A stretch of DNA of 64,000 nucleotides from Naegleria gruberi (GCA_000004985.1 GG738867.1); one strand, 5' to 3'; counted from the stretch's first letter, positions 24,901 through 53,472 are shown. The notes: generated by a model from the sequence alone, not told the origin. Program-made: numbers and translations.

Positions 24901-26273
24901 AGATAGGTACTAGATGTTTCTTTTGAAAGACTTTCCAAATCTGAAACATTCTTTGTTAATTTCGAAAGAGTTTGACTTGATTCTGTAACTATTTTTGTGG
25001 ATTCAGTTATAGACCTATGGTTCTCTTCCACTTTTTTGTTTGTTTTTTCAAGCAGAGTTTCTATTGGTACAAGATATTTCTTGGCTGTTTCTAATTGTTG
25101 TCCAACATCTTTTGCTATTGTATCCAAACTGGAGTTTACAGATTCATGATATAGTTTCAAAGTTTCCATTTCTGATTCTAATCTAGAAGCTATGGTTGAA
25201 CCTTCATTGGTAACAATTTGTTGGACACTTTCAAGTGTGCTCTTCATTTCTGTATGGAAATTCTTTTCACTTGAATCAACAAGCTCCTTTATGAGTTGGG
25301 TAATGTTCTTATCCAAGTCGTCATGTTTTTTTTCAAGCTGGTGACCAAGTTTAACAGCGCCAAGGAAAGAATTGGCAATTTTTTCTTCAAGATATTTCTT
25401 TGTATTTTCTAGTTCTGAACTTTGATTTGTAGTATTCTTATTGACAGTAGAAACTAAGTCTGAAACATAGTTCCCCAATGTTTGTGTTTCTTTCTTAATT
25501 TCTGTTATCCTTTCACATTGGGAGCTATGAAGAGAAGTGACCTCCCATTGGAGTTTGTACCAAAACATTGCGATTGCTATCAAGAGTACTGAGAAGGGTA
25601 CTATTTGCAAACTATTAGATGAATAGTTTGAGGAACTTGATTCAGGGTTACTAAGGAATGAATAAAAGTTAGACAATTCGGCACCAATGAGTGGTAGATT
25701 CTCTGTTTTACCAAATTGACTCTTGATCCAATAAACTATCTCGTCTTTGGAATCTTTTCTCAAAAAGTTGTCAATAACATTTGGTTTTAGTTGATAACTC
25801 TTTGAAAAGTATGAAACTGAAAAGTATTCAAGCAGCTTTCTGACAATTGCTGAAGATTGATCACTTCCAAACTTGGTTGTGATATGATACTCTTTCTCCA
25901 GCACTGACACATTAGCCTTGATCATGAAGGGATTAAAGAACAAGTCCTTCTTGGCCATCTGCTTGTGAACAGTCATGGCATCTTCCTTATTAAGTGAACA
26001 GAAATCCTTAGTGTTGATCACTTGTTGGGAGATGTGATTATCAAAGATTGATGCCGAAAGCTGACCACTCTTGAAACAATCAAAATTGAAGCAGAATTCT
26101 TGAAGGGATCTAATGTTCCTCTCATAGAGAATGTTCTTAATAATTCTGGAGCAACAGGTGCTGTGAGGATTGAAGGTACATTCTGATAGGACGTCCTCCA
26201 CTTTCTTGGCTTGCGAGATTTTGCTGCCGAAAAACAAGATTACAAGCAGTAGGAGAAGGATCTTTGCGATCAT
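21963..26273 (-). CDS. Giant (1436 aa) signal-peptide plus transmembrane coiled-coil protein with internally duplicated modules.
   Basis: N-terminal MIAKILLLLLVILFFGSKISQA (signal or anchor). A Cys-containing about 200-aa domain follows. TM segment LQIVPFSVLLIAIAMFWYKL. Then about 1000 aa of heptad-like E/K/T/S-rich coiled coil containing repeated modules (TDLVVSKLERFNNSILTNSKET..., VDDLQNN.SQIIKENVNLGKLE...CCKFVAKI.D). A basic Cys-containing tail closes the protein. Confidence 0.7.
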   Translation of the reverse strand: MIAKILLLLLVILFFGSKISQAKKVEDVLSECTFNPHSTCCSRIIKNILYERNIRSLQEFCFNFDCFKSGQLSASIFDNHISQQVINTKDFCSLNKEDAMTVHKQMAKKDLFFNPFMIKANVSVLEKEYHITTKFGSDQSSAIVRKLLEYFSVSYFSKSYQLKPNVIDNFLRKDSKDEIVYWIKSQFGKTENLPLIGAELSNFYSFLSNPESSSSNYSSNSLQIVPFSVLLIAIAMFWYKLQWEVTSLHSSQCERITEIKKETQTLGNYVSDLVSTVNKNTTNQSSELENTKKYLEEKIANSFLGAVKLGHQLEKKHDDLDKNITQLIKELVDSSEKNFHTEMKSTLESVQQIVTNEGSTIASRLESEMETLKLYHESVNSSLDTIAKDVGQQLETAKKYLVPIETLLEKTNKKVEENHRSITESTKIVTESSQTLSKLTKNVSDLESLSKETSSTYLKSLENLPTMLNETKQMFVDSLQTMVNETNQIISAEHETLSTKVDNLEKSISTNLESNLVETKKIEETNRRIIEISSKVDNLENSISRVGKSQTEAITKIAKESTDLVVSKLERFNNSILTNSKETQNSVTSALNQLTEEVKMIVTEEEVVNKIKKHVDDLQNNLSQIIKENVNLGKLENSLNNLPSREEVMKFNNELCCKFVAKIDDTNQVLHKEMKSKLESVQQIVTKESSTIVSTLESEMETLKLYQEIVNSSLDIIEKDMGKITEQQLETTKKYLKPLENLPTFLNESKQAIVENQNSVASKLTGLISATTTLERFRITEFSSALCSKVDNLEKFISSVGKDSTDLVVSKLERFNNSILTNSKETHNSVTSALNQLTEEVKMILTEEEVVNQIKQPLETLQTTLEKTNKTVEENQKSITESTKIVTESSHTLSKLTKNVSDLENLSKETSNTYLKPLHNLPTMLNETKQTFVETLKDSLQTMISETNQIISEKHEALRTKVDNLENFISTKFETTNLLDNHLSTHFEHLGKSINETNELVNSSEKNLHKEMKSTLDTLQQLVADEIAHKLDTNQSELATLTDEIKMIATKEEVDTKIKQYVDDLQNNISQIIKENVNLGKLETSLNNLPSREEVMKFNNELCCKFVAKINDKNQEIEPTTCVKSIAKKQIENGTNETLKELVRSETGVMVDKIAACANTETIDKINALYQLTEENGNVEQMLKLDISLVQDHLYDALCKLEAFSSDIINETIDPTVETKEIEESYENFELVSWETIPKQEEKNVTETIIITQLDQPISYDYIEHSSNSQEFSFEENNHSMKLGVNIDSTSTGPYYINPNIPTVMETLTLYKDVQDQIEQDIPKQDSSPRQETEETLTVQATPMCGNEVPSSQAVITIQNNSNTASCTSSSPNRNATSSGGGSPCKKQKSPKGRKCNNLDLSNGIKDFDELVKKLKEVKEDLKMKKDKKMVNKVKH
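22900..25300. repeat. Intragenic mosaic duplications at about 95% nucleotide identity. For example, 22961-23190 and 24301-24530 are near-identical, offset by 1341 bp.
   Basis: Direct comparison of the two stretches shows only scattered substitutions. Antisense ORF-track artefacts 22960..23190 and 24301..24498 encode near-identical peptides. The protein-level modules recur in a different order, so this is not a simple tandem array. Confidence 0.7.
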
Positions 26274-29088: not shown

Positions 29089-29251
29089 TCATCAAATCAA
29101 CTAATTAAATTCTATCAATGAAATCTGGAGAAGAAGAAACTTGCTTTCAATACTGTCCAATTCGATTAATTCTCTTGACAATTGACTCATCATGATTTGT
29201 TATTAAATTTTGCAATTAATTTTAAAATTAAAAACAAGAAAAACAAAAAAA

Positions 29252-29879
29252 ATGAGCTTAAAGTCATCACAGCATCATAACGGATCATCAGCAACATCAT
29301 CTTCTAATAATCAATCATCACAACAACAACGATTATATGTCCGATATGTAGGTTTATAGTCGTTATATTAAATTATTATAATTTAGAAAAAATTAATTTA
29401 ATATTATTTTGATTAGTATGTTGGACATAAGGGAAAATATGGTCATGAATTTTTGGAAATTACTTTTCATCCCGATGGTTTATTAGAATATAAAAATAAT
29501 ACAGATTATAAAGGAGAGGGAGAAATATTGAAAACTGTAAATTTAAATAATATTGTGTTGGAGCAATTAAAGACAATAATTTTGGAATCACGTATTATGG
29601 AGTAAGTTTTGGATGTTAAATTTGGATATTAATCTGATGAATAGAGAAAGTGATCGAAAGTGGCCACTACCAGACAATATTGGAAAATCAGAATTGGAAA
29701 TTGTATTAGATAAGGAACACATTTCATTTGCCACCACTAAAATTCAAACTCTTTCCGAAGTTACCAAATCACATGATCCAGAAGGATTGAAGAACTTTTA
29801 TTATTTAACAGCTGATTTGAAAGATTTTGCACTCAACCTCATCAATATGCATCATAAACTCAAACCAATTCTGTACTAG
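29252..29879 (+). CDS. mago: Mago nashi (exon-junction complex subunit). Three exons: 29252..29347, 29417..29601, 29645..29879.
   Basis: Spliced translation gives ...[27 protein letters not shown]...LKTVNLNNIVLEQLKTIILESRIME-ESDRKWPLPDNIGKSELEIVLDKEHISFATTKIQTLSEVTKSHDPEGLKNFYYLTADLKDFALNLINMHHKLKPI. This matches the Mago nashi family essentially end to end. Introns are GTAGGT..TTAG (69 nt) and GTAAGT..ATAG (43 nt). Confidence 0.85.
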
Positions 29880-29944: not shown

Positions 29945-30025
29945 GCAGACTTGGCCGAGTGGTTAAGGCGACAGACTTGAAATCTGTTGGGGAAACCTTC
30001 GTAGGTTCGAATCCTGCAGTCTGCG
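29945..30025 (+). tRNA. tRNA-Ser: tRNA-Ser (anticodon UGA).
   Basis: Same scaffold as the Ser-CGA gene at 20826. The acceptor, T-arm, variable arm and 3' flank TCTGAAATTTTG are identical. Differences are confined to the D-loop and the anticodon stem-loop (CTTGAAA). Confidence 0.9.
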
Positions 30026-30157
30026 TCTGAAATTTTGTTTTAAGATATTCTAATATTTGTAACTATTGGTCTTTGTTTTTTACAATCGGGCATTTAAAGG
30101 ATTACAAAATTACTATCCAATTCTCCATCCGAAGCAGAATTGAAAGTATAAAAAAAA

Positions 30158-31200
30158 ATGCAACAAGAACAGGAGGAGGGTGATACATGTTTCGAAAGCG
30201 AACATGAGTACATCACCACACAAGATGGCTACAAAGTGTCTGGTACCTTGTTCTTTCCCATTCAACGTCATCTTGTAATTGATGAACACATGAAGACAAC
30301 TGTCATTTTATTAAGTGGAGCTATGGGAGTTCCTTCTAAATTTTATAGAGAATTTGCTAGATTTCTATGTGGAAAAACAAAATGTGTGATATCTACAATC
30401 GATTATAGANNNNNNNNNNNNNNNNNNNNNNNNNNNNNNNNNNNNNNNNNNNNNNNNNNCCATTCCAGGACTTTATTTATATTGGACACTCAATTGGTGC
30501 TCAAATACTGGCCTATTTCCCACCAGAATACTTGAAAAAACTGAGAGGAACTCTCCTAGTAGCGACACAAAGTGGTGCCCTTAAACATTGGCCATTAATT
30601 CGTCAGAGGGCAGAGTTGTACTTTTATTGGTATGTTTTTCTGCCGAGCATGACCATGCTGTATCCAAGGGAGGTTCCATTATTTGGTGTGGATAATCGAA
30701 TAATTTCAGATTGGTATGGAGCTGGTCGATGCCACAACAAGTATTTATTCGAATATTTTAATATTGGAGATGCAAAGGTTAATTCGAAACATGTATCTTG
30801 GATTTTACAAGACAAACCAGTGGTTGTATATAATGTAGATAATGATAAGTTTGCACCATATGATGCAACCATGTGGCTGACCAGAACATTTACTGAACCA
30901 AGTTTTGTTTCTGATTTGAAAATGGAATATTTCAATGACAAGTCAAAAGCTCTGCAAATAATGGATTTGAAATTTGATGGAAATGATAGAAAATTGGGAA
31001 CATTTGGAGGAAAACAAAAGATATTTTACTGTATTCGTGGCCAAGTTGCTAAAAATATTGGACATTTTAACTTTTTTAGGGAAAAGGAGGGAAAGAATGA
31101 ATGTTGGCCTCACTTGCTATCCCATTGTTTAGATTTATTAAATAATTGTGAAAATGATGATACATTAAATCCACCAACCACAAGACATAGTAAACTTTGA
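30158..31200 (+). CDS. Alpha/beta-hydrolase fold serine hydrolase with C-terminal PTS1 (-SKL), interrupted by an assembly gap.
   Basis: GHSIG nucleophile elbow (YIGHSIGAQ). C-terminal ...TTRHSKL*. Paralogue of 45097..46455. The frame changes across the 50-N gap (ORF-track 30158..30535 and 30532..31200). Confidence 0.65.
30410..30459. other. Assembly gap (50 N).
   Basis: Run of exactly 50 N characters inside the hydrolase CDS. Confidence 1.
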
Positions 31201-31221
31201 AGTGACGAGTTGGGCTTATGG

Positions 31222-31245
31222 TGAAGAAGAAGAAGAAGAAGAAGG
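31222..31245. repeat. (GAA)7 microsatellite.
   Basis: gaagaagaagaagaagaagaagg read directly from the sequence. Confidence 0.9.
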
Positions 31246-31251
31246 AACTGG

Positions 31252-31608
31252 TTGAGTAGGCAAAACTGGAAATACACCAGAATATTATTAGTATTGGAAA
31301 GTATGAAGGTATTGTGTAAAGTTCGCACAAGTAAGGTAAAAACATTAAAAAAAAATATAACCTCAACCAAATCTGTTGAAATGTTAAAGCAACAAGAGGA
31401 AGAAGCTCCAACCAATAATAAAAGAAAGACTGAAGAGCAGGTTTCTTTTGATGACTGGAAAAGAAATTTAGCAAAAGGCGTACCGAATGTATTTTATACC
31501 AACATACCAGGAGATATTGAAAAGTATCACGCAATGGAAAAGAAAGAAAATTTTATTATATTCTGTGATGAAGATGGTGATGATGATTCTGACTATGAAT
31601 ATTTTTAA
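31252..31608 (+). CDS. Hypothetical small protein with an acidic C-terminus.
   Basis: 118-aa ORF ending ...FCDEDGDDDSDYEYF. The true start may be the internal Met at about 31303. No family recognised. Confidence 0.3.
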   Translation: MSRQNWKYTRILLVLESMKVLCKVRTSKVKTLKKNITSTKSVEMLKQQEEEAPTNNKRKTEEQVSFDDWKRNLAKGVPNVFYTNIPGDIEKYHAMEKKENFIIFCDEDGDDDSDYEYF

Positions 31609-31922
31609 ATTATTGTAACTTGGTTGTGTTGATCTTAACGAATATCTGTTGTTTGATTGGCCGTATAATGAGGAGTAAGGGTAGGTCATTTGGATTTGTA
31701 AAATCTTATTAATAAAACAATTTTGTTGTGGATATTCAATCGTCTTATTTACACACAACTTTAAACACTGTTTAGAGTTTTTCAACTTTTTGAAACATCT
31801 TTCACAAACCAAATATTGACACGTTCTGAGAAAACACGTGTTGAACATGAACATTCTCTGACCAAAGAAATGCATTTTCCCAATTTGGATGTTTCCAACA
31901 GTTTTTCATCAGAAATTAAAAA

Positions 31923-33143
31923 ATGAAAAGATCTCCACTCGTACCATTAGTAGAACTTTGCATATTTGCTGTTCTGTTTATTTTCTTGGCACAATTTGCA
32001 GTGGCAGAAATTACCTTTCAAGTTTCGTCTGTTTCTGCAAATGATGTGAAAATTCCAGAGAAACCATTTAGTTTTGAACAGATTCTTCCATTCTCTCCTA
32101 ATTATTTGTATGCTGATGAGGATGATGATCTAATATTGAAAGGAGAAGGCTCCAATTCACAAATTAAATACGAAACTAAACCTATCCAATCAAGTTTCGA
32201 ATCCTCATTCAATAATAATCGATCCATCATTCAACTAGGATCAAATTCATTTGTAATGAGTGGTGTAACATCCTATTCGAATCATCACAATTTAATAATC
32301 AAGCCAGATGATGTATGGCTTGCAATTTCTACTCAATTTTCGAATTACGTAAATGGAAAGTCAGAAGAATTACGAGAGAAATTTGTAGATTTCAAAGGTA
32401 AAAAACAATTAACTGTTTATGGAGGTGGAACATTGTATTCTGCTGATTATGTCACTCTTTCGAATAAGATGACTGAACAAATTGAGATGAATATCAAAGA
32501 TCCAAGTATCCGAAATTGGATTATTCCAAATTTTTCAACAACCACCAAAACTGATAGAATGGTTGGTTCGATAGTATTGATGGCATCGATGAAAAATTAT
32601 TTTGATTATCAGATTAGTTTATCTTGTAATTTACCTAATGTTACCTTATTAGGAAATGTTGAAGATTGGATTGAAATTAGAGAAAGAGCCGAAAGATTAT
32701 TAGAATTTGATACCAAGGAAGGATATATGAGAAAATGGGTAAAAATACTTTTACCAATTTTGGATAAATTTGTTGACTCTGCAAAAGGAAATCCTGATAT
32801 TGAATGGTGGAATAGAATAGCTCATTGGGAAGGTGGAGGATCTGGACCATCGTATATAAGTGGTTGGATTACTGCTTTCTGTGTATTTTCAGAAAAGGGT
32901 CATTGGAAAGGAGACGAAACTTCAGTTAAACTGTTCAACAAGTCAAAGGAAATCACAAGTGAATGGCTAATTATTGACAGCGATGAAATACCAAGAGGTT
33001 ATGTCAATGTACCAATTCAAATAGACGATAATGGGATATTGTATAATACTGAAATGTTTGCTGGACATATGGTTTCTGATATTTTGAAAGATGGAAAGAC
33101 GATTCAACCAAGAGTTGATTGGGCTCTCTTCCTTATTCTATAA
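31923..33143 (+). CDS. Secreted hypothetical protein (406 aa).
   Basis: N-terminal hydrophobic signal [28 protein letters not shown]. Globular remainder with a [21 protein letters not shown] motif. No family assignment. Confidence 0.55.
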
Positions 33144-33906
33144 TATTAAATTCCATAATTTTCAGAATAATCTGTGTAGAATAGTTTACTTTCGTTTATT
33201 TACTCTATTACTAATTAAACAACAGTTTTCATAACATAATATTCATAATCACCATGAGCTTCAACAAAAGGCAAAATTTGGTTATGTAAATAATTGAGGA
33301 GAATGTCATGAACTTGAGTCATTTCTCAACAAATTGTCAACACCATCCTTACAGAATGAATTCCAACACTTTTCGAATGGATTTGTCAATAACTTTTCAG
33401 ATAATTTGAATGCTGTACTTTCAGTACTTCTCTTCTTGGCAGTTTCCCATCCATTTCTTGTTTTGGACATGCCTTCGTCCCACAATTCTCTGTGTGGTTT
33501 CCATGAGAGAACAGTTTGTCTACCTTGTTCAAGGAAGTGACACTAGTTTCGGAGCTTGTTTATGAAACGGTAAGTCTTCTCATCACACCATTGAAGCCTC
33601 TGTTTTCACCCAGCATCACCTGGTCTTGGAGCCAAGTGATCCATGGATGCATGAGAAGCTGCTACTCCTTTGATATCAACAGATTAACAATGTGACATTT
33701 TGTATGTTTTGTTTGTTTGTTTGTGTGTGTTTTTTTGATTTTGTTTTAATATTAGATGCCTTAATCTCTCAGCATTTAAGGAGAATATTGTTGCGAGACT
33801 TTTCTAATTATTAAGGTAAGTCGAACAATTATCAGGGCAGTAAATGAGTTCCGTGTATTTATAAACAAATCAACAAAAATTTTACCAATAATTTATAATA
33901 AATAGT

Positions 33907-36620
33907 TTATTTTAACATGTTTTCAGATTCCTCAGTAAGATACTTGCCAATAATGGATTGAACAATAGTATTCTCGAGTGGGGTTGCTGAAAAACATCTC
34001 TCTGCACAACTGGCCATCACTTCTTGAACCAATGATGGAAGATAGGTCTTATCTTCAATCAGAGTGGCAAGTTTTTGTTGCATAAAAGCAATTTCAACTT
34101 GCAATTGTTGGAAACCATTCTTACCAAAAGTGAGACCTCTAACACATTCTTCCATGGTCTTTAAAACAATCTTGAGAACTTCAGTAACAATTTCATTACC
34201 ACTGAAACTGGAATCACCTGCTCGTTGGAAATATCTTGGTGTCTTGATGGAGAAACTTGAAAGTTTCTTGTTGAAAATTCTCATTACATCCTTCACAGCA
34301 TCAGAATTTTGACTATATTTGAGTGAAGAAGATGAATCCAAACCACCATATGAAAGACTTGACTCACCACCACTTCTTCCACTTCTGCCACTTCTACCAG
34401 AGTCACTCTTTTCTGTTTCAGTGTCATGAATTTGACTAGGTGGGAATAATTCAATCAAGTGAGACCTTATATTGAAAAGATCTGTAACTGTAACTCTGAT
34501 AAAGCTTCTCACGTCACGAGGAACATCGGTATCGAGCCAATTATGTGATTCCATGCTAGTTCTGATTAATTTGGAAACCGATCTGGCTTGAATTTCAATA
34601 TAATATACAATTAAGTGGGAAGTACATTCCTTGATACGAATTTCCATATTTTCAATATTGAAGAAGGTATCTTCATCTTCAAGTTCTGTCATACGACTTC
34701 TTGAGGATGTCTTTCTCACTGATTCGGATGATGAAAACTTTTCACGAAGCATGTGCTTGAAATCTCTCAATGGAAGTTTTGTACAAAGTTTGGTCAATAA
34801 GAGAGCTCCGACACATGTCACCTTACGGAATTTGTATTCTTCTGGTGTTAAAATAGAAACCTTGCTATGAGGAGTACCATAATCCTTACAGAATAACAAG
34901 AGAGAATCAATAAACTCGACACACATGGATCTAATCCAATTCTTGTAAAAGCTTTCTCTTGATGCCATAATGGATCCTAGTGGAGTTTGAGTATCCTCTT
35001 CATTGATAAAAACTCTATAATTATCCAATCCTGATTCCAAATCATTTTTCAAATTTTGAATAGCTCCATCAACTATGGAATATAATTGATTAGCTTTGGT
35101 ATTATCAGGTGTTTCGGCTAGCTTTTGAATATTGGTCTCAGTGTTAATCTTGACCAATTCCATTTGATTCATTAAGAATGTTCTCACAGTGTCACCAACT
35201 AAATTGTAAACCTTTTCTTGAAGCTTGTTGTTTGGAATTTCTACAATATGTGAAACGGATTCATTACAGAATAATCTGAGAGCTAACTTCAAGTCCTCGT
35301 TGGAACTCTTTGAATTGTGAAGTAAACTTCTAATGTGTTCAAAATATCCAATGAATAATTGTTTGGTCCATTCACTGAAATCTTTGGTAAGTTGTTCGTT
35401 GGTGATTTGTTTTCTAATTTTTGGATCATTGGTAAGGAAGGTCATTTGGTAGGTATAATAACATGATTGTACTCTTTTCAAAAATGATGCATTCAGTGAT
35501 TTCACTCTTTCACTGGTGTTTGCTGATTCTGTTTGTTTAATTACCCTTTCCATATCTGCCTTTAAAAATTCTGATCTGACCTTCAGATAGGAATCTCTCA
35601 CTTGTTCAACTGGAACCTCCAAATCTATCAAAATGCCGACATAATCTTGAACCTTTGGATCATCATCATCGGCAATATTTAACAAATCCTTTTCAATATT
35701 GGTCTTCATCTTGTTGATAACATCAGTAGATTCCTTTTCAATGTTTTTAAATCCAGATAAATTAGCATTCTTTTTAAATATTCTACTAGCAATATTGTAA
35801 TACTTGACAGCAATATTATACTTTTTCATTTCTATACAGTCATTCAATCTTGTTGGTAATTCCAACAAGAATTGCATTTTCTTTAAAGTTCTGTTGACAC
35901 TGGAAAGTCTCTCAATCTTGTCTCTCTTGTTTTGAAGATTGGAGTTAATAGTTTCCGAACAAGTAGTAATTTTATCCATATTTTGTAAAAGTGATTTCAT
36001 TTCATCTTCCATTCCTTCCACGTGATGTTTCATCTTCTTGATAGTATCTGTTGCTGTGATAAACTTGTTGTAATTTTGATAGACAAGCATTTGAAGTGAT
36101 GTATCCAAATTCTTAGTTTCTTTTCTCAGTGCCGATTCTTGTTGCAATAAATCCTCCACTGATTTGTTCATCAGAGTCTTTTTTAAAAAGTCATCTGCAT
36201 TAAAGTGACTTCCATCTATTATTAATTTCATGATGATAATGATGATGATGAAGTATTGTTATTATAATAATATATTATAATTCATATTATTGTTGTGAAA
36301 AAGTACATTATATAAATTTCATATTAATCCAAATCAACAATAAAATTATAATTTAACACGAATTCACAAAATCAAAACCTACCAATATCTGTCGTATCAA
36401 AAACTTGACTATTATTTACAACAGGTCTTGAAGGTGTTCCTTCATCTCCTTGGTCTTCCTCATCAGCCATGGCACCATAAAATTGTGCCAACAACAATCG
36501 TGATCTCTCTCTTTCCTTGTCCTCGGTCAAGTCAGCCAATGGAGTAGAGGTAACAACCTCCTCCTCATTATTGTTGTTTTTCATCACAGATCGGGAGGGT
36601 GTTCTTGTTGGTGTACTCAT
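33907..36620 (-). CDS. VPS51: Vps51 (GARP/EARP complex subunit, Vps51/Vps67/Ang2 family). Two exons: 36384..36620 and 33907..36216.
   Basis: Spliced junction gives ...LLLAQFYG...VFDTTDID-GSHFNADDFLKKTLMNKSVEDLLQQESALRKETKNLDTSLQMLVYQNYNKFITATDTIKKMK. This matches the Vps51 N-terminal domain, with LVYENYNKFISATDTIRKM as its hallmark. Intron GTAGGT...AATAG is 167 nt (36217..36383). Confidence 0.75.
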
Positions 36621-36904
36621 TTTTTTACTGTGTATGATAGGAAAGATTTTTGTCCATCAAATTCTGATGAATATCAACACGGAAGGCAATGACATTCTTT
36701 AGGTAAACAATTCTATCTTGATATTTATTGTTATCCCTTCGATACTAAATAGCTGATGCTGATGATCCATACGACCTAAAATCAAGCATGCACATTTGGA
36801 TAATACAAAAAAATTGTTTTTTATTTTTTTTTAAATTTTTCAGTCATCAACAGATCATCACCATCAATAAGGAACGGCTACCTTTATTAAATAATATTAA
36901 AAAA

Positions 36905-39900
36905 ATGAATGTCTTCAATGCCATGTTCCAGACGAGAAAGGCTCCATCGTCGGCCACTGGAACCACTCAAGCCATGCATGTATTTTACATGTTGTCAATG
37001 GAAAAGATTTTGAAGAATTTAGTGAAGAAACAAACCGATTTGAAGAATGCTTGCCAAGAAGTTATGGGTATGTTTTGTTAGGGAGACTTTTTAGTTAATC
37101 AATAATCATTATTGTCATTAATTAAATTAACCTTCATTCACAAATAACAATGGAATAATATATAGATGTTATTAAAAAGTTGGAAAAGAACGAAGCCGAC
37201 GTTCTTAGGGATATTTCTGAAAATCCAAATAGATACTTTAAACCTTTGGAATTAGCTTGTGCAACCAAAAAACCAACAATAGTAGAACCGGCATTGGATT
37301 GTCTTCATAAATTGATGGCTTATGGATATATTGATAGTAAAATACCATATGAAGGGAAAACTGATCTTTTAATTGATGTTGTTGTTGCTACAATTTCTAA
37401 TTGTTTTGATCCAACACAAGACGACAATGTTCAATTACAGATCATCAAGGCCCTTCTTACAGCAGTTACATCATGTGATATCCATGGAAGGAGCTTGAGA
37501 TTAACCGTAAAGACTTGTTTCAATATTCATCTAGTTTCAAAGAATGAAATTAATAGAAAGACAGCACAAGCAACTCTCAACCAAATGTTGAATATTATTT
37601 TCCAAAGAATGGAATCAAAACCACCAAAAGCTAAACAACAAGAAGCTAATCAAGAAAATGTTCAAGATGAGAGTGCTCTTGCACAACTTCAGGAGGAAAA
37701 ACCAACAGAGGATTATATTAATGAATTTGTTGATGGAATAATAGATGACGTTGCCCAACAAATTTTGGAACAACAACAATATGATCTTGAGAATGAGGAG
37801 GATGACGAACCTATGGATGTTATTGAAAGTGAAAATAATGGAGAGTCATCGGATAAAACAAATACACGTAAGAGATCGGTTTCAGATGCTGATCACGAAC
37901 CAAACGCTCCAATTTTTGACAACCAATACCAAAAAGATGCTTTCTTTATATTTAGAGCATTATGTAGATTAGCCATGAAGCAACTCCCTAAGAAGTATGT
38001 TTTTGTTATTACAATTTATTAATTTAAATTAACAATTTAAAAACCTAGTCCAACCCCAGACTCCTTGGAACTTAAAAGTCGTTTACTTTCTCTTGAATTA
38101 ATTCACAACGTTTTGGAAAACAGTGGACCAGTGTTTAGAACATCTGAGACTTTCATTTCGGATATCAAGCAATTTTTGTGTTTATCACTTTTGAGAAATT
38201 GTACAAGTCCAGTTCCACCAATCTTTTCTCTTTCATTGTCCATTTTTAAATCCCTTGTTAAATATTTCAAAGTTAATCTGAAAGGAGAAATTCGTTTGTT
38301 CCTGACAAACTTTTTGCGTATCTTACACAGTGAAAATAGTACATATCACCACAAGATGTTGGTAATTCAGGTTTTGAGTTTTATTGCTCAAGATTCACAA
38401 ACATTATTGGATATTTTCGTTAACTATGATTGTGCTTTGGACTCTTTGAATATTTACGAACAAATTGCTAGTGAATTGTCAAACGTTGTACAAAACTTAC
38501 AAGCTGAAGGAGAATGGATGACACCTACACAAGAACTTAAATTAAAGACAGCATCTTTGAATGCTTTGGTGTCTGTTTTGGAATCACTTGTAAAGTGGAT
38601 GAATGAAAAGCAAGGTGAATCATCAGAGGAACTTAATAATCAATCCGAAGAAATGACTGAAGGTGAATACTTTGAAAAGCAAAGAAACATGAAGATTGGT
38701 CTGAAAGAAGGTATCAAACTTTTCAATAGAAACCCAAAGAAAGGTATCAAGTACCTTGTTGAAATTGGAAAACTTCCAGATCCTGAAAAAGTCGACAAGA
38801 CTGAATATGCTACCTCTGTTGCTAAGCTTTTATATAATACTGAAGATTTTTCAAAGAAGTTGATGGGTGAATTTATGGGTGAACAAGTTAATAGTGATAT
38901 TCTCCATGCCTTTACTGAATTACAATCATTTGCTGGTCTTCCATTCGATAAGGCATTCAGAAATTATTTGAATACATTCAGACTTCCAGGTGAAGGCCAA
39001 CAAATTGACAGAGTTGTCCAAAAGTTTGCTGAAAAGTACTTTAAGGATAACGGAAAGTCACATGTTTTTGCCAATGCTGATGCTTGTTACGTTTTTGCTT
39101 ACTCTGTAATTATGTTGAATACCGAATTGCACAACCCTGCTTTCAACTTCCGTGAAAGAATGTCTCTTGAAGCTTTCATTGCTAACAATAAGGGTATCAA
39201 TGATGGTGGTGATATTGACCACAAGTACCAAGAGTCTATCTATGGAAGTATTAAGAATAATGAAATTAAATTGAAGGGAGATGAAATGGAACAAATTGTG
39301 CAACAATCCCAAGATAAAACTCAACTTACAGCTCAACAAAATCCAAGAAAGAAGCGTATGTTGTTCACTTTGGAAAGCGAAAAGCTCGAAAAGGAAACAA
39401 GAAACTTGTTGAAATCAAGTCAATCACAGAGTGATTCTGATGATCAATTCTTCAGTGCTAATCACATTACTCACGTAAGAAGTATGATGGAAACAACCTG
39501 GGAATTTTTCAAGGAAGGTCTCAAGGCTACTTTGGAAAAGGACAAGTTTGCTGATACTAAGGTCCATGACAATTGTCTCAGAGGTTTGGAATATGCTATT
39601 CACATTACTAGCCGTTTTGATATGCCAACTGAAAGATTGGCTTTTGTTCAAACATTGTGTCACTTTACCAAATTGACCATTTCTGAAAAGGAATATGAAG
39701 CTCAAAATGATCCAAATCATATCCACCAAAATCCAGATACTCTCAAGAACAGATATATTATGCAAGATAGACACATCAAGGCTATCAAGATACTTCTCAA
39801 GATTGCCGAATTAGAAGGTAATTATCTTAAGGACAGTTGGGCCAATATTTTGGAATGTCTTTCTCAATTAGAAAGATTGCAATCTGATGTCCCACAAAAT

Positions 39901-41955
39901 CGTAACAAATCCAAGAGTGCTGCTAGATTAACTATTGAATTGACCCCAGAACAAATCAATTCTAATACCATCTTGAATAATAATATTGACCATCTTGTTA
40001 TTGATAAGATCTTTGTCAAGTCTGGTGAATTGAGTGATGATGCTATTGAAAGCTTTGTTAAGGGCTTGTGTGGCGTTTCTAATGATGAAATTAATCCAAA
40101 AGCTAATAGAATGACATGTACTGGTAACATTAATATTAATCCAGTACCAAGAACTTTCAGTTTGCAAAAGCTTATTGAAGTTGCTCACTATAATATTAAC
40201 AGAATCAAAATTGTTTGGTCCAAGTTGTGGGTTCACATGGGTAAACATTTCATCACTGTTGGTACACATGATGATTTGACTATTGCAATGAATGCTATTG
40301 ACTCTTTGAGACAACTTTCAATGAAATTCTTGGAACAAGACGAATTGGCTAACTATCACTTCCAACGTGACTTCCTCAAGCCATTCTTCCAAATTATTCA
40401 ACAAAGCAACAAGACTGAAATTAGATTACTCACTGTTGAATGTGTTGGTCAAATGATTTTGGGTAGATATAACAATATCAAGTCTGGTTGGAAGACAATT
40501 CTCCAAATCTTTGCTCAAGCAGCTTTGTGTGGATCACCAGTCACTGACGAGGGTTTTAGATATGTCACTGCAATGATGAAGGATGGTGGTGATGTTGATT
40601 ATTTCCATCAAATTCAACAAAACGAATCCTTTGTTGATTGTATCTTGTGTTTGACTGCTTTTGCTCGTAACTTGGCTAATACCAATATTTCCAAAAGTTC
40701 TATTGCACTTTTAAAGCTCTGTGCTCTTCATATTGTTAATAATAGAGTTGATGCTATCAAGAATGTTGACATTTACACTGATGAAGAAGTTCACTTCAAG
40801 TTGTGGTTCCCTATCTTGACTGGTCTCTCGCGATTGGTTAGTGACGATAGAAGAGAAGAAGTTAGAGCTAATGCTTTGAAGACTCTCTTTGAAGAAGTTC
40901 TCATTAACAGAAAGATTGGTGACAGATTCTCTCCAAAGCTTTGGAATTTCGTTTTCACTGGAGTTCTTTTCCCAATATTTGACGAAATCAAGCAAGCCAA
41001 TATCACTGATGAAAGCTGGATCAATACTACTTGTAGAAAATCCTTGAGCTTGATGGTCACATTATTTGCTCAATACTTTACATCCATTCCACAATTATTC
41101 GACAATATTCTCACCTTGATTAGTTCTCATTGTTTCTTTAGAGTTGAAGAGGATCAAGTCAATCAAAATACTGACTCTCCTTTGGTTGTTGAAAAGAAGA
41201 TTAAGAATGAAAAGCTTGCTGAAATTGGTAACGAGTCATTCAAGATTTTTGTTCAATTATGTGGTAAATTATTCAATGACCAACAATGGGATGCTGTTTG
41301 CAGAAGTTTGGAAAGTATTCTCACCATCAACCTTAAACTTAAGTCACCAATCGATAGCAGAATCCGTTTGAAGATTATTGAAACAACTAACGATATTCTC
41401 ACTACTCAATTCGATAACATGAAACTTGTTCACATTGAAAGTATGCTTGATTCATTGTTGAATTGTCATAACACCTCATTGGAATTCAACTCCAAGCAAA
41501 AGGGTAATGCTGAAAATGATTACGAGATTGAAATTGAAATGTTCTCCTGTACTGTTTATGTTAATATCTGTTCCAAGTTGTGCTCATCACCAAAAACAAC
41601 CGAAGAACTCTCTAAACGTCAAGAAGTTGGAGAAAATAGAATTATTGAGATTACCGAAAGAACTTTCATCAGATATTTACAACATATTGGTATTTTACAA
41701 TATTCTGGTAGTAATGCTGATTTAGATATTCAACAAGATACTGTCTTGTGTGGTAATAGATTAATGTCATCATTGGTTCCAACAGTTGTTTCTCTCCTCG
41801 AAGTTTACCTTTCATTCCCTGAAGAACAATTCCTCAAATACTTACCTAAATTCTACCCTCTTTTCACTAAATTATTGCTGACGCAACACAGAGAAATCAG
41901 ATTAGTTCTCCTTGACTTGTTCACTAGATTTGGTAAACAAGTTCTTTTGAAATAA
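36905..41955 (+). CDS. SEC7: Sec7-domain Arf guanine-nucleotide exchange factor, BIG/Sec7p class. Three exons: 36905..37067, 37166..37994, 38049..41955.
   Basis: Sec7 catalytic domain ...FRLPGEGQQIDRVVQKFAEKYFKDN...ADACYVFAYSVIMLNTELHNPAF has the catalytic Glu in the PGE motif. DCB/HUS-like N-terminal helical regions and long HDS-like C-terminal regions are present. Introns are GTATGT..ATAG (98 nt) and GTATGT..CTAG (54 nt). Confidence 0.8.
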
Positions 41956-41994
41956 ATTAATATTATTTATATTGTATTCGTGAAGCTTGCTTAT

Positions 41995-42870
41995 TTAGAA
42001 GAGCTCTCGTTCAATGTTGGAGAAGCTAGCTTTTGAGAAGGTGATTCGAGGAACCTGATTGAAATATCTGTAATTTGTCAATCTCTTGAAGAAATCAAAT
42101 CGAGACGAGTTGGAATAATCCAAAGTAACATCAATTTCCAAATCTCTGTAAACATTCATGACTTCATTCTCAATTAAATTGGTCAGATTTTTCCTACATT
42201 CCTCATGGATAGAATAACTTTCCTCCATTCTCCTTCTCAAATAATAAAACAAGATTACAACACTAATAATTAAAAACCCAACTGTAAATCCAGAAATGAC
42301 TCCAATTCCAGTAAAAACTATGTCCATGTCAAACATCTTATCCACCTTCTTTAAAACTTCATAAAAGGAAAAGAGCAGCACTCCCATCAATCCTATTGCA
42401 CTCAACACTGAAATCAAAACATAAATAGATAAAAACAATAGTGGAATATGAACCTTCCTCAAGTGGCTCTGTACCGTATGTGAGGCTTCTCTCAAAGTTT
42501 GTAAAAAGTGTTGCTCGTACTCTGCCATCAAAACACCATCAACACATTTGAATTCCAAATTCTTACTATCCATCTTGTAAACCACAAAATTAACAACCTC
42601 CCTCTTCATTCTAGTTGACAACAGTAACAATTCAGTAATACCTCCTCCACTCATCGATGAATAGGACGATGATCCTCTATTGAACATCTCGTGATTATAA
42701 AAGGCCTTCAATATCGACTTTCTCTTATCCAATTTACCAACAGAACCTTCCTGATCATGATTACTATAATATAGTGCATTCATACTCTTCCTATTAATAT
42801 CATTCATATTATTATTATACTTCGGGTGATGGTGATGATTTAATTCTTCAATTCCTTGCTCTTCCATCAT
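41995..42870 (-). CDS. Hypothetical membrane protein with two or three TM segments.
   Basis: 291-aa ORF. Hydrophobic segments HIPLLFLSIYVLISVLSAIGLMGVLLFSF and FTGIGVISGFTVGFLIISVVILFYYL. Confidence 0.5.
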   Translation of the reverse strand: MMEEQGIEELNHHHHPKYNNNMNDINRKSMNALYYSNHDQEGSVGKLDKRKSILKAFYNHEMFNRGSSSYSSMSGGGITELLLLSTRMKREVVNFVVYKMDSKNLEFKCVDGVLMAEYEQHFLQTLREASHTVQSHLRKVHIPLLFLSIYVLISVLSAIGLMGVLLFSFYEVLKKVDKMFDMDIVFTGIGVISGFTVGFLIISVVILFYYLRRRMEESYSIHEECRKNLTNLIENEVMNVYRDLEIDVTLDYSNSSRFDFFKRLTNYRYFNQVPRITFSKASFSNIERELF

Positions 42871-43290
42871 CTTATTTTTCCTTAATATAAAAATTCTCCT
42901 TTTGTTCGCTTAACGGCCAAGATTTGCGCCTAATTTTTTTTTCAATAAATTCATGAAACAGTAATCTTTGCAGTAGTAATACTGTTCTAATTTTGAAGAC
43001 GTTACTTTAAAGGAAATGGTTAAAAGCTAGTTAATTGTAATGGATGCGGACCTATATTTTCAGTAAGGTCTGCTTAAAAGAAAAGGACACTTGTAATAAT
43101 TTGTGACATTTGACTCTCATAAATTCATCAACAGTTCAAATTGCTCTCATCTGCCTCCTTGTGGTTGACTTGCTTTGTTTGCCACTCGTTCACCTTTTTA
43201 ATTCTAATATTCTCATATGAACCTTTCATCTCACGACTTGACTGTCATCATCGAGTCTAGACAACTTTAAAAAAAAATAACTAATTAAGA

Positions 43291-44265
43291 ATGCAATTCT
43301 GGATTCAAGACACAAAGCCATCTTGGCTGCCAGAAGGTTTTCAAGTGGTAAGTTTCAAGTAGTCAACTGAAGTATGAAATCCTCTTTTTCACATAGCCAA
43401 ATGAAATGTTAAATAAAGTGCAAGAATTGACCAAGGAAGCAGAGAATGTATATTATCAAGTTGACACTGAACGTAATGGATTTTTGAGAAGAAAGGAATT
43501 CAAGAAGGCAATGAAGAAGTTGGGTATCAACAAGTATGAAGCAAAGTAAGTTGTCTTGTTACAATTGACTGATAAATTTGAAGACACATGTTAATATTTG
43601 TTGATCAAGAACGTCTCAAAGTGGTTAGCATTAAGAATTATGTCAACTCCTACTTGTTCATCCAAAGTGGTGGATTGAATCACATCAATACTGATTATCA
43701 AGGTCCAATCACATCTGTAGTTGACCAAAGAACTCACATGAACAATACTGAGCCAGAAAGAATACCATTCGACATGTCTCAACTCTCCAAACAGCTATCA
43801 AACATCTCATTCCTTACTCAAAATGTCTTCCAATCCATTCCACGTCCAAAAAACATTGTTGGCTACTATCAAACAATGCAAGCAGCCAATGGCATGTACT
43901 TGTGCTCTGAAAATGGAAGACTGATTGCCAATCGTCCAGTTATTGGACCGTGGGAGAAATTCTTCCTACATCACGATTCAAGTTGGGGAGTTGATGGCAG
44001 AGCACTCAAAACTGTTTGGAATAAGTATATATGCTGTGAAATTGATAATACAGCTGTGGATAATAGAACTGCAGTTGGTCCTTGGGAGATTTTCAAACAA
44101 AGTATTCCAGATGATGGTGGACAGAGTATGGAAAGGAATGTTTACAAGTCGTGGACTGGGCGGTATCTCACATCTGATACTACTGGAAATGTTTCATTTG
44201 GTGCAACTTCAATTGGAACAAATGAGATTTGGATATGTAAGGTTGTTAGTGCAGTGTATATTTAA
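43291..44265 (+). CDS. EF-hand plus beta-trefoil (fascin/ricin-B-like) protein. Three-exon model: 43291..43347, 43397..43545, 43584..44265.
   Basis: Exon 2 encodes an EF-hand loop, DTERNGFLRRKE. Exon 3 carries repeated GPWEKF / GPWEIF beta-trefoil-type motifs. Introns are GTAAGT..ATAG (49 nt) and GTAAGT..GAAG (38 nt). The second intron is very short, so the model is tentative. Confidence 0.45.
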
Positions 44266-44441
44266 GATGTTTTGTAAATTAATAGTATTTAAAAATTGTA
44301 TGGTCGATAGTTAAATACTTATAATTTGTAAAGAAGTGTTGAAAATATGTGGAACAAAGGAAATTGAATCAATCATCTCTCTAATAAACTTAATTTCCAA
44401 CTTGTTTCCAATAATCTTTAGGAGTTACTTTCGAATAAAAA

Positions 44442-44918
44442 ATGTCATCAACATACCAAAACGCTGCCTACGATGAAGTTGCTCATCAACCACAACCATC
44501 ACAACCACCACAATATGGTCAATATCCAGTAATTCTCGACGATCATGGTCAACCAATCCACCATCCATCCGCTCAAAATTATCCACAATTATATGTAGAC
44601 GAAACCATGCCACCAAATCCACCTCTCAAAACTGTTCTCCGAGAAGTTTTTTCACCTTTTCCTAAACGTTTCGTCGCTTCTTCTCTTGCTGGTTTAGTTT
44701 TAACTTTGACTAATGTTTTACTTTTCGTATATTTACTTTTCTGGATTATTAATTCATCAGTTAATGCTTTCGAATACAAGACTGGATATGGTGTTTTCGT
44801 CTTGTTATTCACAGGATTAATGTCTGGATTAACATTGGTTTTAGGAAGTTCTTTCATGAGAATGTTGGTTGAATGTTTCTTGTCTGTTTATGCTTTGAGA
44901 GAAAAGAAATCACTTTAA
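44442..44918 (+). CDS. Small Pro/Gln-rich membrane protein (two TM helices).
   Basis: 158-aa ORF. N-terminus is P/Q/Y-rich. Two hydrophobic helices at the C-terminus. Confidence 0.45.
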   Translation: MSSTYQNAAYDEVAHQPQPSQPPQYGQYPVILDDHGQPIHHPSAQNYPQLYVDETMPPNPPLKTVLREVFSPFPKRFVASSLAGLVLTLTNVLLFVYLLFWIINSSVNAFEYKTGYGVFVLLFTGLMSGLTLVLGSSFMRMLVECFLSVYALREKKSL

Positions 44919-45096
44919 ATTAATATTCGAATCCGATTCATCATCATCATCACCAGTATATTAATGTATTATTATTATTGATCAAAAAAGCTAAAATCAA
45001 TAAATGTAAAATTATTGTTTTGTGATCACACAATTTTACAAAGTTGAACTATTTTACAATATAAGATTAATATTCTAAAAGGAATGGTGAAATATT

Positions 45097-46455
45097 TTAC
45101 AACTTGCTTGATCTGGCAGGGAAGGGATTGTTTGGAGAAAGGAGTGGATTGCTGGTTGAGTCAACTTTTGGAGATTCCAATAATTCCAAACAGAGTTTCA
45201 AGAGGTGTGGCCAACATTCGTCCTTTCCTTCCTGTTCTCTGAAGAAATTAAAGTGTCCAATCTTTTTGGCCACCTTTCCATGGATATAGTACATTCTCTT
45301 TTGATTTCCTCCAAATGATTTGATATCTGGTTCGTCATTTTGGAAAGTAATTCGTTTCTTGGTGATGTTTGTTGATTTTCCATTCAAATGTTGGAGTTTC
45401 AGATTTGAGATAAATGTTGGATCAGAGATGGATCTTAATAGCCACAAACTAGCTTGAAATGGAGCATAGAAATCATTCTCAATCACATAGGCAATCATTG
45501 CCTTATTTTGTAGAGCCCAAGAGGGATGTTTAGGATTGATTTTTGCTTCCTCAATTCCAAAATATTCGAAAATATAATTTGTGTTACATCTTCCGGCTGA
45601 GTACCAATCGGTGACCAATTGATTGGCTACATTAATAGGTGGAGTTTCCATTCGATAGAGTGTAGTCATGGTTGGTAGCATGATGTACCAATAAACATAG
45701 AGCAAGAGTCGTGGAATGATCCATGGCCAATGCTGAGCCACACCACTCTGTGAAGCAATCATGATAGTTCCCTTAAATTTACACAAATATTCATTTGGAC
45801 AATAGGCCAATACCTGCCCACCAATTGAATGAGCAATATATACAAATTCATTAATTGGTTTCACTCCATTAACACACTCTCCTCTCAATTTAACATCCAA
45901 ATTATTGCTTTCACATTTCAATAATTTATCCAATGATGAATTTTCCAAATAATCCATCACAGCAGGTAAATCAAATCTTCCCCAATTTACAATCGTTACA
46001 AATTTCTTTTGAATTTCCAAGAATATTTCCCTCTCACTCTTTCCTTCATCAAACTTGACACCATCAATTGAATCTTTTGTAATTCTCGATTTGAAACATC
46101 CTCTAAAATCAAAACTCATTACAATACATTTAGTATTCAAACATAAAAACCTGGCAAATTCTCTATAAAATCGAGATGGTACTCCCATCGCTGATCCTAT
46201 CACAATAGCACACTCTCTCAAATTATCATCTAGTATTATAACTTCTCTCAATGATGATGATGCAGATTTTGTATTTTCCTTTTCGTTATTAGCATTGATT
46301 GAAGTATTTTCCGATGATGAAATTTTCCTAAGGATCGGAAAAAAAATTGTTCCTGAGAGTTTGTATGAATCTCTGGTAATGATTTGGTGATGGCATTCGA
46401 GACAATCCACAGTGGTAGTTGGGAGTGAGGTGGAATCTGTGTCGTGTTGTGACAT
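45097..46455 (-). CDS. Alpha/beta-hydrolase fold serine hydrolase with C-terminal PTS1 (-SKL), paralogue of 30158..31200.
   Basis: AHSIGGQ nucleophile elbow. Shared blocks with the paralogue: GVPSRFYREFARFLC, HWPWII/HWPLI, DWYSAGRC and KIGHFNFFREQEGKDECWPHLL. Ends ...ARSSKL*. Confidence 0.7.
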   Translation of the reverse strand: MSQHDTDSTSLPTTTVDCLECHHQIITRDSYKLSGTIFFPILRKISSSENTSINANNEKENTKSASSSLREVIILDDNLRECAIVIGSAMGVPSRFYREFARFLCLNTKCIVMSFDFRGCFKSRITKDSIDGVKFDEGKSEREIFLEIQKKFVTIVNWGRFDLPAVMDYLENSSLDKLLKCESNNLDVKLRGECVNGVKPINEFVYIAHSIGGQVLAYCPNEYLCKFKGTIMIASQSGVAQHWPWIIPRLLLYVYWYIMLPTMTTLYRMETPPINVANQLVTDWYSAGRCNTNYIFEYFGIEEAKINPKHPSWALQNKAMIAYVIENDFYAPFQASLWLLRSISDPTFISNLKLQHLNGKSTNITKKRITFQNDEPDIKSFGGNQKRMYYIHGKVAKKIGHFNFFREQEGKDECWPHLLKLCLELLESPKVDSTSNPLLSPNNPFPARSSKL

Positions 46456-46596
46456 TTTTTTTAAATTTGTTATATTTAAATATTTATTAAATACTTTACA
46501 AAAGAAGTTTTTGATTAAAGATTTGTTGATTCAGTTTACTGTATCAGGTCTAAAAAGTCAGAGAACCCAAATGTAAAATAAAGTGTGTAAAAAATT

Positions 46597-46677
46597 CGCG
46601 GTCTACAGGATTCGAACCTGTGCGGGTCGCCCCAATTGATTTCTAGTCAATCACCTTAACCACTCGGTCAAGACCGC
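46597..46677 (-). tRNA. tRNA-Ser: tRNA-Ser (anticodon AGA).
   Basis: Reverse complement folds as follows. Acceptor GCGGTCT pairs with AGACCGC, discriminator G. Anticodon loop CTAGAAA. Long variable arm. T-arm CAGG-TTCGAAT-CCTG. 3' T-run. Confidence 0.9.
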
Positions 46678-47881
46678 TTGTTGTTCAATACATTTATTAT
46701 ACCCAATTATTTCTTTATTACAATACAGCTTAATTAACCTTAACTCAATCAAGATCAGTCAAAACAATTCAAGTTCGACAATAGACCTCGCATAAGCGCC
46801 ACCACGACTGCATGAAACTCATGTTCTTGACCACTACCTTTCAATAGTAGTCATTCGCATACCATATATACTTAAATTTTGATCTAAAACCATTGATGAC
46901 TTCATGCATTTTATTCCTTTAGTTAATTACGGAATGTGACCCGATCGAATTGGCAATTAGAACAACCAAATGCTTAACTAGAATCAATGCATCAACACCT
47001 TTCTCATTGAGTGTGTTGTACTTTCAACACCAATTGCATCATCATTCATGTGTTGGTTTTCTAGGTGGAAATCAGTTCACAATCAACAAGATTAAATTTA
47101 CTCAGTGTTCCTGCAAAGTAATAATATCTTTTGTGAGATATTATTCCTCTCAACACAATAAACCAAACTAATTCATTTCACTCCAAACAAAGTATCTCAA
47201 TACCAACACAATATTCTGAAACTGCACTTTATTTTACGCTCCTTCACAATTGGTAAACAAACACAAAGAATAGAAAAAGGGTATTTGTCAAATTTCAACT
47301 CTATACAGTTAATAAATTACACATGTGGGAAAAAATTTAGTTAAAATATCCACCGAATGTTTCGGACTTACATGTTGAATCCAAAAACACAATCTTATCG
47401 ATCTGTCAATGATTGTTTACAAAATGTTATAACTTGTTTGGATTGAAATTCATATAACGCAACTTTGAATGTTAAACTTTATCTCAATGTGTTGAGGAGT
47501 GTGGAATAAACCTGTCGAATGTTATGAGAGGAGTGGCGGCTCTACATACCAAACTAAATGTTATTGACCAATTTTTAGTCGATTCTTTTTTAAAACAAAT
47601 AAAACCACATCAGCTAGCATAGAATAGTTTCGTCTAGAGAATAGTCCAAATTCATAGCTAGAGTACTCTGAAGAGTAATACCAAATTGGATGGATAAACC
47701 TCATCGTCATCATCATCAGTTTCCAGTATCAGTACAACATTAATAGTAGGAATTAGAATATTTACTGTCAGCATCCAACTGTTTCAATGAAGATTAATCT
47801 TTGCAAAAATTACAAAATTTAATATCCATCTACATATTTCAATAATCGCACTGTAAAACAAGACATCTTTTGCTATCATAG

Positions 47882-53330: not shown

Positions 53331-53472
53331 TTTTTTTCAATATTTATTTTTAATAAGAAAAATTTCAATTCATTTGCTTATATTCTTAAATCAATTTGCT
53401 TAATCGATTGTAAATAAGCATATTCGATGCACTTTTCCTCATGTTTGCTTTTGATAAAATTAAAATTTCAGA

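Follow-up and report, generated by a model that had tools for sequence, protein, structure and literature searches.

Here, we report that two paralogous hydrolase genes in a stretch of 64,000 nucleotides (nt) of Naegleria gruberi DNA (GCA_000004985.1 GG738867.1; this whole stretch is called the window below, and positions are counted from its first letter) are each preceded by a serine transfer RNA (tRNA-Ser) gene. The hydrolase genes, which we refer to as A and B, lie 14 kb apart in mirror orientation, and their predicted products carry the C-terminal tripeptide SKL of peroxisomal proteins. Between tRNA-Ser(UGA) and the ATG start codon of gene A (position 30158) there are 132 nt, and between tRNA-Ser(AGA) and the ATG of gene B (position 46455) there are 141 nt, each tRNA being co-oriented with its own downstream hydrolase gene. 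The original prediction, made from this DNA before our analysis, had placed the same two tRNA genes upstream of the hydrolases, and ARAGORN and Rfam agree on both; the arrangement thus stands, while the spacings given there (133 and 142 nt) have to be corrected to the values above. Whether a tRNA-associated duplication or rearrangement lies behind this paired arrangement is, in our estimation, an even call. The most economical account would be that the hydrolase pair and the cluster of serine tRNA elements in the window share one local history of duplication and rearrangement. The features concerned are as follows.

29945-30025, plus strand: tRNA-Ser(UGA), class II, 81 nt (ARAGORN and Rfam, 64.3 bits)
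30158-31200, plus strand: gene A, whole, in two open reading frame (ORF) parts on either side of 50 N
30158-30409, plus strand: N-terminal part of gene A, 84 codons, 38% identity to B residues 18-118
30410-30459, no strand: run of 50 N, an assembly gap inside gene A
30460-31200, plus strand: C-terminal part of gene A, 246 codons and the stop codon
30490-30492, in gene A: codon of the nucleophile serine (GHSIG)
31189-31197, in gene A: SKL codons
31198-31200, in gene A: stop codon
45097-46455, minus strand: gene B, intact ORF, 452 amino acids (aa)
45826-45828, in gene B: codon of Ser210
45100-45108, in gene B: SKL codons
46597-46677, minus strand: tRNA-Ser(AGA), 81 nt (ARAGORN and Rfam, 61.1 bits)

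What speaks for a tRNA-associated duplication is that both copies are accompanied by a tRNA of the same isotype, in the same relative orientation and at closely similar distances (132 vs 141 nt). We simulated the random placement, in position and orientation, of 4-6 tRNA-sized elements in the intergenic DNA of the window, and a co-oriented element fell into the 5' spacer of both paralogues in only 0.3-1.5% of trials, which is nominally unusual. As to the mechanism of the hydrolase duplication, we infer that the tRNA-Ser before each hydrolase gene would be a by-product of the way in which the copies arose. Either the hydrolase gene may have been copied together with its upstream tRNA-Ser, and one of the tRNAs would later have changed its isoacceptor identity by anticodon shift or gene conversion, or recombination or breakage at tRNA genes may have joined a hydrolase copy to another, pre-existing tRNA-Ser. 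In both cases the tRNAs would be ordinary genes of RNA polymerase III (Pol III), and no regulatory device of the hydrolase family. A run of T residues is found directly 3' of each of them: the trailer of tRNA-Ser(UGA), TCTGAAATTTTGTTTT, is the source of its Pol III T-run, and tRNA-Ser(AGA) is followed by AATTTTTT.

Genes A and B are clear paralogues

Gene B is intact, and its product is 100% identical to the N. gruberi protein XP_002677441 (NAEGRDRAFT_67469, on a 424-kb scaffold). The ORF of gene A is interrupted by the 50-N gap, with a different reading frame on either side, a caveat that the original prediction had missed; the gap covers the counterpart of B residues ~119-199 (~80 residues). 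The product of gene A was not returned by either of our protein homologue searches. The two genes had been called clear paralogues, and the direct comparison bears this out, with 51% identity over 237 ungapped aa (E 4e-97) and 38% identity over 100 aa at the N-terminus, a part in which B carries an insertion of 28 residues. No third hydrolase copy was detected in the window by tblastn.

The window holds a cluster of related tRNA-Ser elements

ARAGORN calls five tRNA genes in the window, whose G+C content is 33.6%, and Rfam together with a self-comparison adds a sixth tRNA-like element. Four of these are tRNA-Ser elements (CGA, UGA, AGA and a broken UGA copy) with three anticodons, which lie within 33 kb in the order + + - -. 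Those not linked to a hydrolase gene, with the gene downstream of the broken copy, are listed here.

20826-20906, plus strand: tRNA-Ser(CGA) (ARAGORN), followed after 169 nt by an unrelated ORF in the same orientation (21076-21678, 200 aa)
53473-53553, minus strand: broken copy of tRNA-Ser(UGA) (Rfam, 44.4 bits; missed by ARAGORN)
51753-53330, co-oriented with the broken tRNA-Ser(UGA) copy: HMG-box gene, which has this copy 142 nt upstream

The broken copy contains an 87-nt run (53462-53548) identical to 29950-30036, which takes in the greater part of the tRNA body plus 11 nt of the trailer. Its 5' acceptor strand is replaced (TCATT for GCAGA at tRNA positions 1-5), which is why ARAGORN misses it. 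The CGA and UGA genes differ at 6/81 positions, and they have in common a 12-nt trailer and ~74% of the next 35 nt. From this likeness, which includes the 3' flank, and from the 87-nt partial copy it can be read that a local tRNA-Ser duplication with anticodon change demonstrably occurred in the window. Judged by their sequences, at least three of the elements (UGA, CGA and the broken copy) go back to copying events much more recent than the duplication of A and B.

The density of tRNA genes is also raised here. In the N. gruberi genome, which is ~41 Mb in size and has 924 tRNA genes (tDNAs), ~1.4 tDNAs are expected per 64 kb; 5-6 were observed, a local excess with a Poisson P of ~0.02. The number of tDNAs is that of the published genome (PMC2888827). 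When metagenomes were scanned twice with the Ser tRNA sequences, no match was obtained.

Divergence of the coding sequences points to an ancient duplication

Over 283 aligned codons, the proportion of synonymous differences between A and B (pS) is 0.67, the synonymous divergence (dS) is 1.67, and thus saturated, and the nonsynonymous divergence (dN) is 0.37. With a dN/dS of ~0.22 at saturated dS, purifying selection has acted on both hydrolase copies over a very long period, and their duplication, as measured on the coding sequences, is ancient. The neighbour-joining (NJ) tree places it near the split of N. gruberi from the N. fowleri/N. lovaniensis lineage.

The tRNA neighbour is not a conserved attribute of the hydrolase family

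The family forms two subfamilies in Heterolobosea. Subfamily 1 consists of A and B and their counterparts in N. lovaniensis, N. fowleri and Willaertia, and subfamily 2 of N. fowleri FDP41_002465 and Willaertia ABK040_011941. Five family loci were examined, namely those of N. lovaniensis (L001), the N. fowleri type (L002) and Willaertia (L003) and, for subfamily 2, those of N. fowleri (L004) and Willaertia (L005). At none of the five does a tRNA adjoin the hydrolase gene; just two tRNAs are found in these loci, ~4 kb (L005) and 5.4 kb (L003) upstream of it, with other called genes in between. A tRNA neighbour is, then, not a conserved attribute of this family.

A chance arrangement is a possible alternative

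The paired arrangement might also be due to chance in a compact region rich in tRNA genes, N. gruberi having many such genes in short spacers; the similar spacings would then follow from a general constraint on the room for a tRNA gene between a neighbouring gene and a promoter of RNA polymerase II (Pol II). We regard this as quite possible, though we lean towards doubting it. The observations given in this and the next paragraph mostly weigh against a tRNA-associated duplication or speak for chance. To begin with, the two hydrolase-linked tRNAs are not mutual closest relatives, as the UGA tRNA groups with the CGA gene and the broken copy and not with the AGA gene. The AGA and UGA genes differ at 18/81 positions and in their trailers. 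Several of the differences are paired and fall in the acceptor, D and anticodon stems, as would be expected of isoacceptor lineages that separated long ago. An anticodon shift or gene conversion could, for its part, hide a common origin of the UGA and AGA genes. As regards spacing, all four tRNA-Ser elements stand 132-169 nt upstream of a co-oriented ATG, and two of them precede unrelated genes. Since such distances (142 and 169 nt) are also found before unrelated genes, the near-equal 132 and 141 nt need no co-duplication. The median intergenic spacer in the window is only 284 nt, and a tRNA-Asn gene stands 246 nt upstream of a co-oriented WD-repeat gene; the one exception in the window is a tRNA-Gly gene, which lies tail to tail with its downstream neighbour.

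The absence of a tRNA at all five other family loci argues, by parsimony, that there was no tRNA at the ancestral gene. In the NJ bootstrap, B was grouped with N. lovaniensis and N. fowleri in 61% and with A in 35%, and the order of the duplication and the split from these species is not settled by it. When both loci, extended by 1 kb on either side, were compared by dot-plot and blastn, similarity was confined to the coding sequences and the tRNA bodies, and the spacers between tRNA and ATG, aligned for five tRNAs, have no common motif beyond A-richness before the ATG. Finally, the chance estimate is a post hoc one, as the arrangement was picked after the whole window had been read, and N. 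gruberi has thousands of paralogue pairs.

The original prediction itself had taken the lack of flank similarity beyond the coding sequences, and of tRNAs next to other family members, as signs of a chance arrangement. Both were found, but neither has the force expected of it. Since synonymous sites between A and B are saturated, the missing flank similarity says nothing on whether the flanks were copied, and the five other loci come from other species with a wholly different gene order. What makes chance harder to accept is that the simulated frequency is so low even at the local density of tRNA elements, and would be far lower at the genome-average density. That both tRNAs are serine tRNAs and both co-oriented adds to the coincidence, and local duplication within the same 33 kb has given rise to the hydrolase pair as well as to the tRNA-Ser cluster. 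The tRNA-associated duplication suggested by the original prediction is plausible, and no more than that; tRNA and hydrolase gene have the same order and orientation and a near-equal spacing at both copies.

Position-based and functional explanations

It is also conceivable, but unlikely, that the tRNA genes of N. gruberi, at least those of the serine family, have a preferred site ~130-170 nt upstream of co-oriented Pol II genes. Such a preference could arise if tRNA copies integrate preferentially into promoter DNA, or if they are kept as promoter-proximal elements. If this were true, a positional rule would hold throughout the genome, and the hydrolase pair would merely supply two cases of it.

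In a related explanation, the Ser tRNA elements would be small mobile or retroposed units that insert by preference ~130-170 nt before Pol II start codons, for example into nucleosome-free DNA, and the two hydrolase genes would have been struck independently. We consider this improbable. The uniform placement before a co-oriented ATG would fit, as would the tRNA body and the trailer ending at the T-run that the UGA, CGA and broken UGA elements share, and the end of the broken copy's identity 11 nt past the tRNA. However, the UGA and CGA genes are alike beyond the terminator, over 35 nt, which points to copying at the level of DNA and not of RNA, and neither target-site duplications nor poly-A tails were seen. 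Moreover, the trailer of the AGA gene is different, four tRNAs at the Willaertia loci deviate from the spacing pattern, and the sample consists of four elements.

Lastly, the original prediction had offered the tRNA genes as promoter-proximal boundary elements for the hydrolase family. In this explanation they would act as boundaries or insulators, or set the expression of the hydrolase genes, and would have been retained for it. Yeast tRNA genes can indeed be chromatin barriers and affect neighbouring Pol II genes, and 4/4 tRNA-Ser elements in the window are placed alike before the downstream gene; however, the HMG-box gene and the unrelated 200-aa ORF are among those downstream genes, so this placement is not specific to the family. 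The tRNA is absent at the homologues of N. lovaniensis, of N. fowleri (two subfamilies) and of Willaertia (two subfamilies), and taken together with the placement before unrelated genes this leaves the family boundary idea without support. Furthermore, the four elements include a broken tRNA, the spacers share nothing but their A-richness, and in yeast an active tRNA gene nearby represses Pol II transcription and does not promote it. We thus hold a functional coupling to be very improbable.

Gene order around the hydrolase genes

The following neighbouring genes were compared with related genomes.

33907-36231, minus strand: Vps51/Sec5-like gene, divergent partner of BIG
37180-41955, plus strand: BIG-type Sec7 Arf guanine nucleotide exchange factor (ArfGEF) gene, between A and B, with an apparent intron or frame break near 38022-38065
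44442-44918, plus strand: small DUF4282-like gene, next to gene B

The divergent Vps51-like/BIG pair is kept in N. fowleri and Willaertia magna (L006 and L007), while almost all of the surrounding order differs, and around the BIG/Sec7 orthologue of N. fowleri and Willaertia both hydrolase and tRNA-Ser are absent. N. fowleri has a DUF4282 homologue (L006, 21819-22190) ~7 kb downstream of BIG, and in Willaertia no such homologue was detected. What follows this homologue in N. fowleri is an AAA_28 gene and not, as in the window, the hydrolase and tRNA-Ser(AGA); this place thus looks like a rearrangement boundary. The family loci L001-L005 share no neighbouring genes with the window, and a tblastx self-comparison of the window gave no other flanking paralogue pair, that is, no larger duplicated block around A and B. 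These neighbourhoods are too reshuffled for the ancestral gene order to be reconstructed.

On the other side of tRNA-Ser(UGA) there is a Mago nashi gene (29210-29879, plus strand) with at least one intron, whose two exon ORFs match Pfam at E 4.7e-30 and 3.1e-11 and whose stop codon stands 65 nt before the tRNA. Upstream of tRNA-Ser(AGA), 1.2 kb (46678-47881) are without an ORF of at least 100 aa, which is unusually long for this window with its short median spacer. Elsewhere in the window, a 1436-aa ORF (21963-26273, minus strand) has large internal repeats (~22.8-23.9 kb vs ~24.2-25.3 kb, with 64-88% aa identity by tblastx); its Pfam matches are weak and of the coiled-coil type.

Both proteins end in a predicted peroxisomal targeting signal

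The original prediction stated that both proteins end in the canonical SKL, and the C-termini, TTRHSKL in A and PARSSKL in B, each directly before the stop codon, confirm it. Both fit the consensus of the type 1 signal for peroxisomal targeting (PTS1), [SAC][KRH][LM], and a basic residue precedes SKL in each (RHSKL, RSSKL). The tail is also conserved in relatives: SKL ends 14/14 eukaryote-type proteins (N. gruberi B, N. lovaniensis, two from N. fowleri, two from Willaertia magna and several metagenome/Logan proteins), and one further relative ends in SRL. The SKL-bearing clade includes eukaryote proteins from metagenomes and read archives (P0005-P0008, P0026, P0091). A PTS1-type tail is absent from ~140 bacterial-type relatives. 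Since the nearest relatives outside the SKL clade are such bacterial-type proteins of ~285 aa, the peroxisomal enzyme may have an old bacterial ancestry.

Naegleria has peroxisomes and peroxins including PEX5, and among the predicted PTS1 of N. gruberi -SKL predominates (PMC7549135). From the tails of A and B we infer that both proteins are imported into peroxisomes, the SKL being read by PEX5. Against this counts that no experimental localisation of A or B was found, including in the N. gruberi organelle proteome supplements. A link to the Gcp proteins of the pathway between the mitochondrial type II secretion system (miT2SS) and peroxisomes was considered and dropped, as the paper on it mentions no hydrolase and the accessions are absent there.

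A and B are predicted serine hydrolases of an uncharacterised subfamily

In Pfam, A and B gave alpha/beta-hydrolase matches below threshold only (E 0.027-0.27). We built a profile from the five closest relatives and searched it against 1.84 billion representative proteins. At E <= 1e-3 it matched 1119 proteins, and at E <= 1e-10 there were still 260; the usual length is ~285 aa. The homologues of this length that were sampled pass the Pfam thresholds for Hydrolase_4, Abhydrolase_6 or Abhydrolase_1; NCBIfam gave only far sub-threshold matches on the bacterial-type homologues and no specific function. A second homologue search, with a 12-sequence alignment, returned no further Naegleria paralogues, this word-index search being incomplete, as it missed P0005 and P0154.

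The nucleophile elbow is GHSIG in A and AHSIG in B. The original prediction had described a shared GxSxG elbow, which is right for A and does not strictly apply to B. In an 83-sequence alignment Ser210 (B numbering) is invariant, while Asp328 and His401 are conserved in at least 90% of the sequences and follow in the canonical order Ser-Asp-His; these three residues would form the catalytic triad. The AlphaFold2 model of B built from the same alignment has a mean predicted local distance difference test score (pLDDT) of 87.3 and a predicted template modelling score (pTM) of 0.89, and it replaced an earlier, poor model from 5 sequences (pLDDT 51.8). S210 is located in it at the junction of a strand (204-209) and a helix (210-218). 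A Foldseek search with this model returned 650 matches in the Protein Data Bank (PDB) at E <= 1e-3, and the best 50 all have the alpha/beta-hydrolase fold; by sequence, the best comparison of the proteins with PDB chains reached E 0.0016. The assignment to alpha/beta-hydrolases had already been made in the original prediction, and the profile search and the structure model uphold it. The fold, the conserved triad and the homologue profile together mark A and B as serine hydrolases of an uncharacterised subfamily of the alpha/beta-hydrolase superfamily, by prediction from sequence and model. Structural neighbours, the sole guide to the substrate, make a lipid or some other carboxyl or thio-ester probable.

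Among better-known hydrolases, the bacterial-type proteins (~285 aa; Hydrolase_4/Abhydrolase_6) are true sequence homologues, with 260 representatives at the stricter cut-off above. They have the motifs GHSIGGQ, QSGYW, DDxxAP and IGHFGFF in common with the Naegleria proteins, but neither the SKL tail nor the insertions of the latter are present in them, and they have no assigned function. Two peroxisomal enzymes, Lpx1 of Saccharomyces cerevisiae (2y6u/2y6v) and MpaH' of Penicillium (7dbi), are only 8-13% identical and are not the nearest structural neighbours; no family relationship of A or B to either was detected at the sequence level. The acid (gastric/lysosomal) lipases 1k8q and 6v7n are at most 14% identical, and no Pfam match at threshold was obtained. 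Moreover, acid lipases carry signal peptides and are glycoproteins of the secretory route or the lysosome, whereas A and B end in PTS1.

Comparison with tRNA-associated duplication in yeasts

In S. cerevisiae, sites of gene gain and rearrangement breakpoints are found beside tRNA genes at ~3x over chance (PMC2675101), and in the gained yeast family of YPR071W 5/5 members lie beside tRNA genes (Gordon, Byrne & Wolfe 2009, PMC2675101). Rearrangements are likewise reported to be often bounded by tRNAs (Di Rienzi et al. 2009, PMC2817429). The likeness to our case is that duplicated or gained protein genes adjoin tRNA genes. For yeasts it has been proposed that tRNA copies of near-identical sequence undergo ectopic recombination, and that replication is fragile at tRNA genes. 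Our case differs in that Naegleria is a heterolobosean amoeba, that Ty-like elements were not seen, that the two tRNAs share one isotype and have nearly equal distances and the same orientation, and that the event is too old for its junctions to be read.

A second yeast parallel would be the tDNA barrier at HMR of S. cerevisiae and tRNA-gene-mediated silencing. A Pol III gene within ~150 nt of the start of a Pol II gene is common to these systems and to the Naegleria loci; however, the Naegleria association is not conserved across orthologues, and the yeast effect on a close promoter is repression.

Meaning for Naegleria and for the hydrolase family

With its adjacent tRNAs, the hydrolase pair may add a new case of tRNA-associated gene duplication, a pattern known in yeasts. 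If the duplication reading holds, a deeply branching free-living amoeba would provide an example of a pattern that has been documented mainly in yeasts; if true, this would suggest that tRNA genes are general hotspots of rearrangement in eukaryotes. The proteins are predicted to be new, uncharacterised members of the alpha/beta-hydrolases with a conserved PTS1, and nothing in them falls outside known kinds. Neither the duplication pattern nor the hydrolase family alters current understanding.

For the biology of the organism, what emerges is an uncharacterised hydrolase family with a strictly conserved SKL, whose identified members belong to Heterolobosea (Naegleria and Willaertia). N. gruberi reportedly prefers lipids as its growth substrate, and the pathogen N. 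fowleri has one orthologue. Given this lipid preference and the kinship of N. gruberi with N. fowleri, A and B matter as candidate lipid or ester hydrolases of the Naegleria peroxisome.

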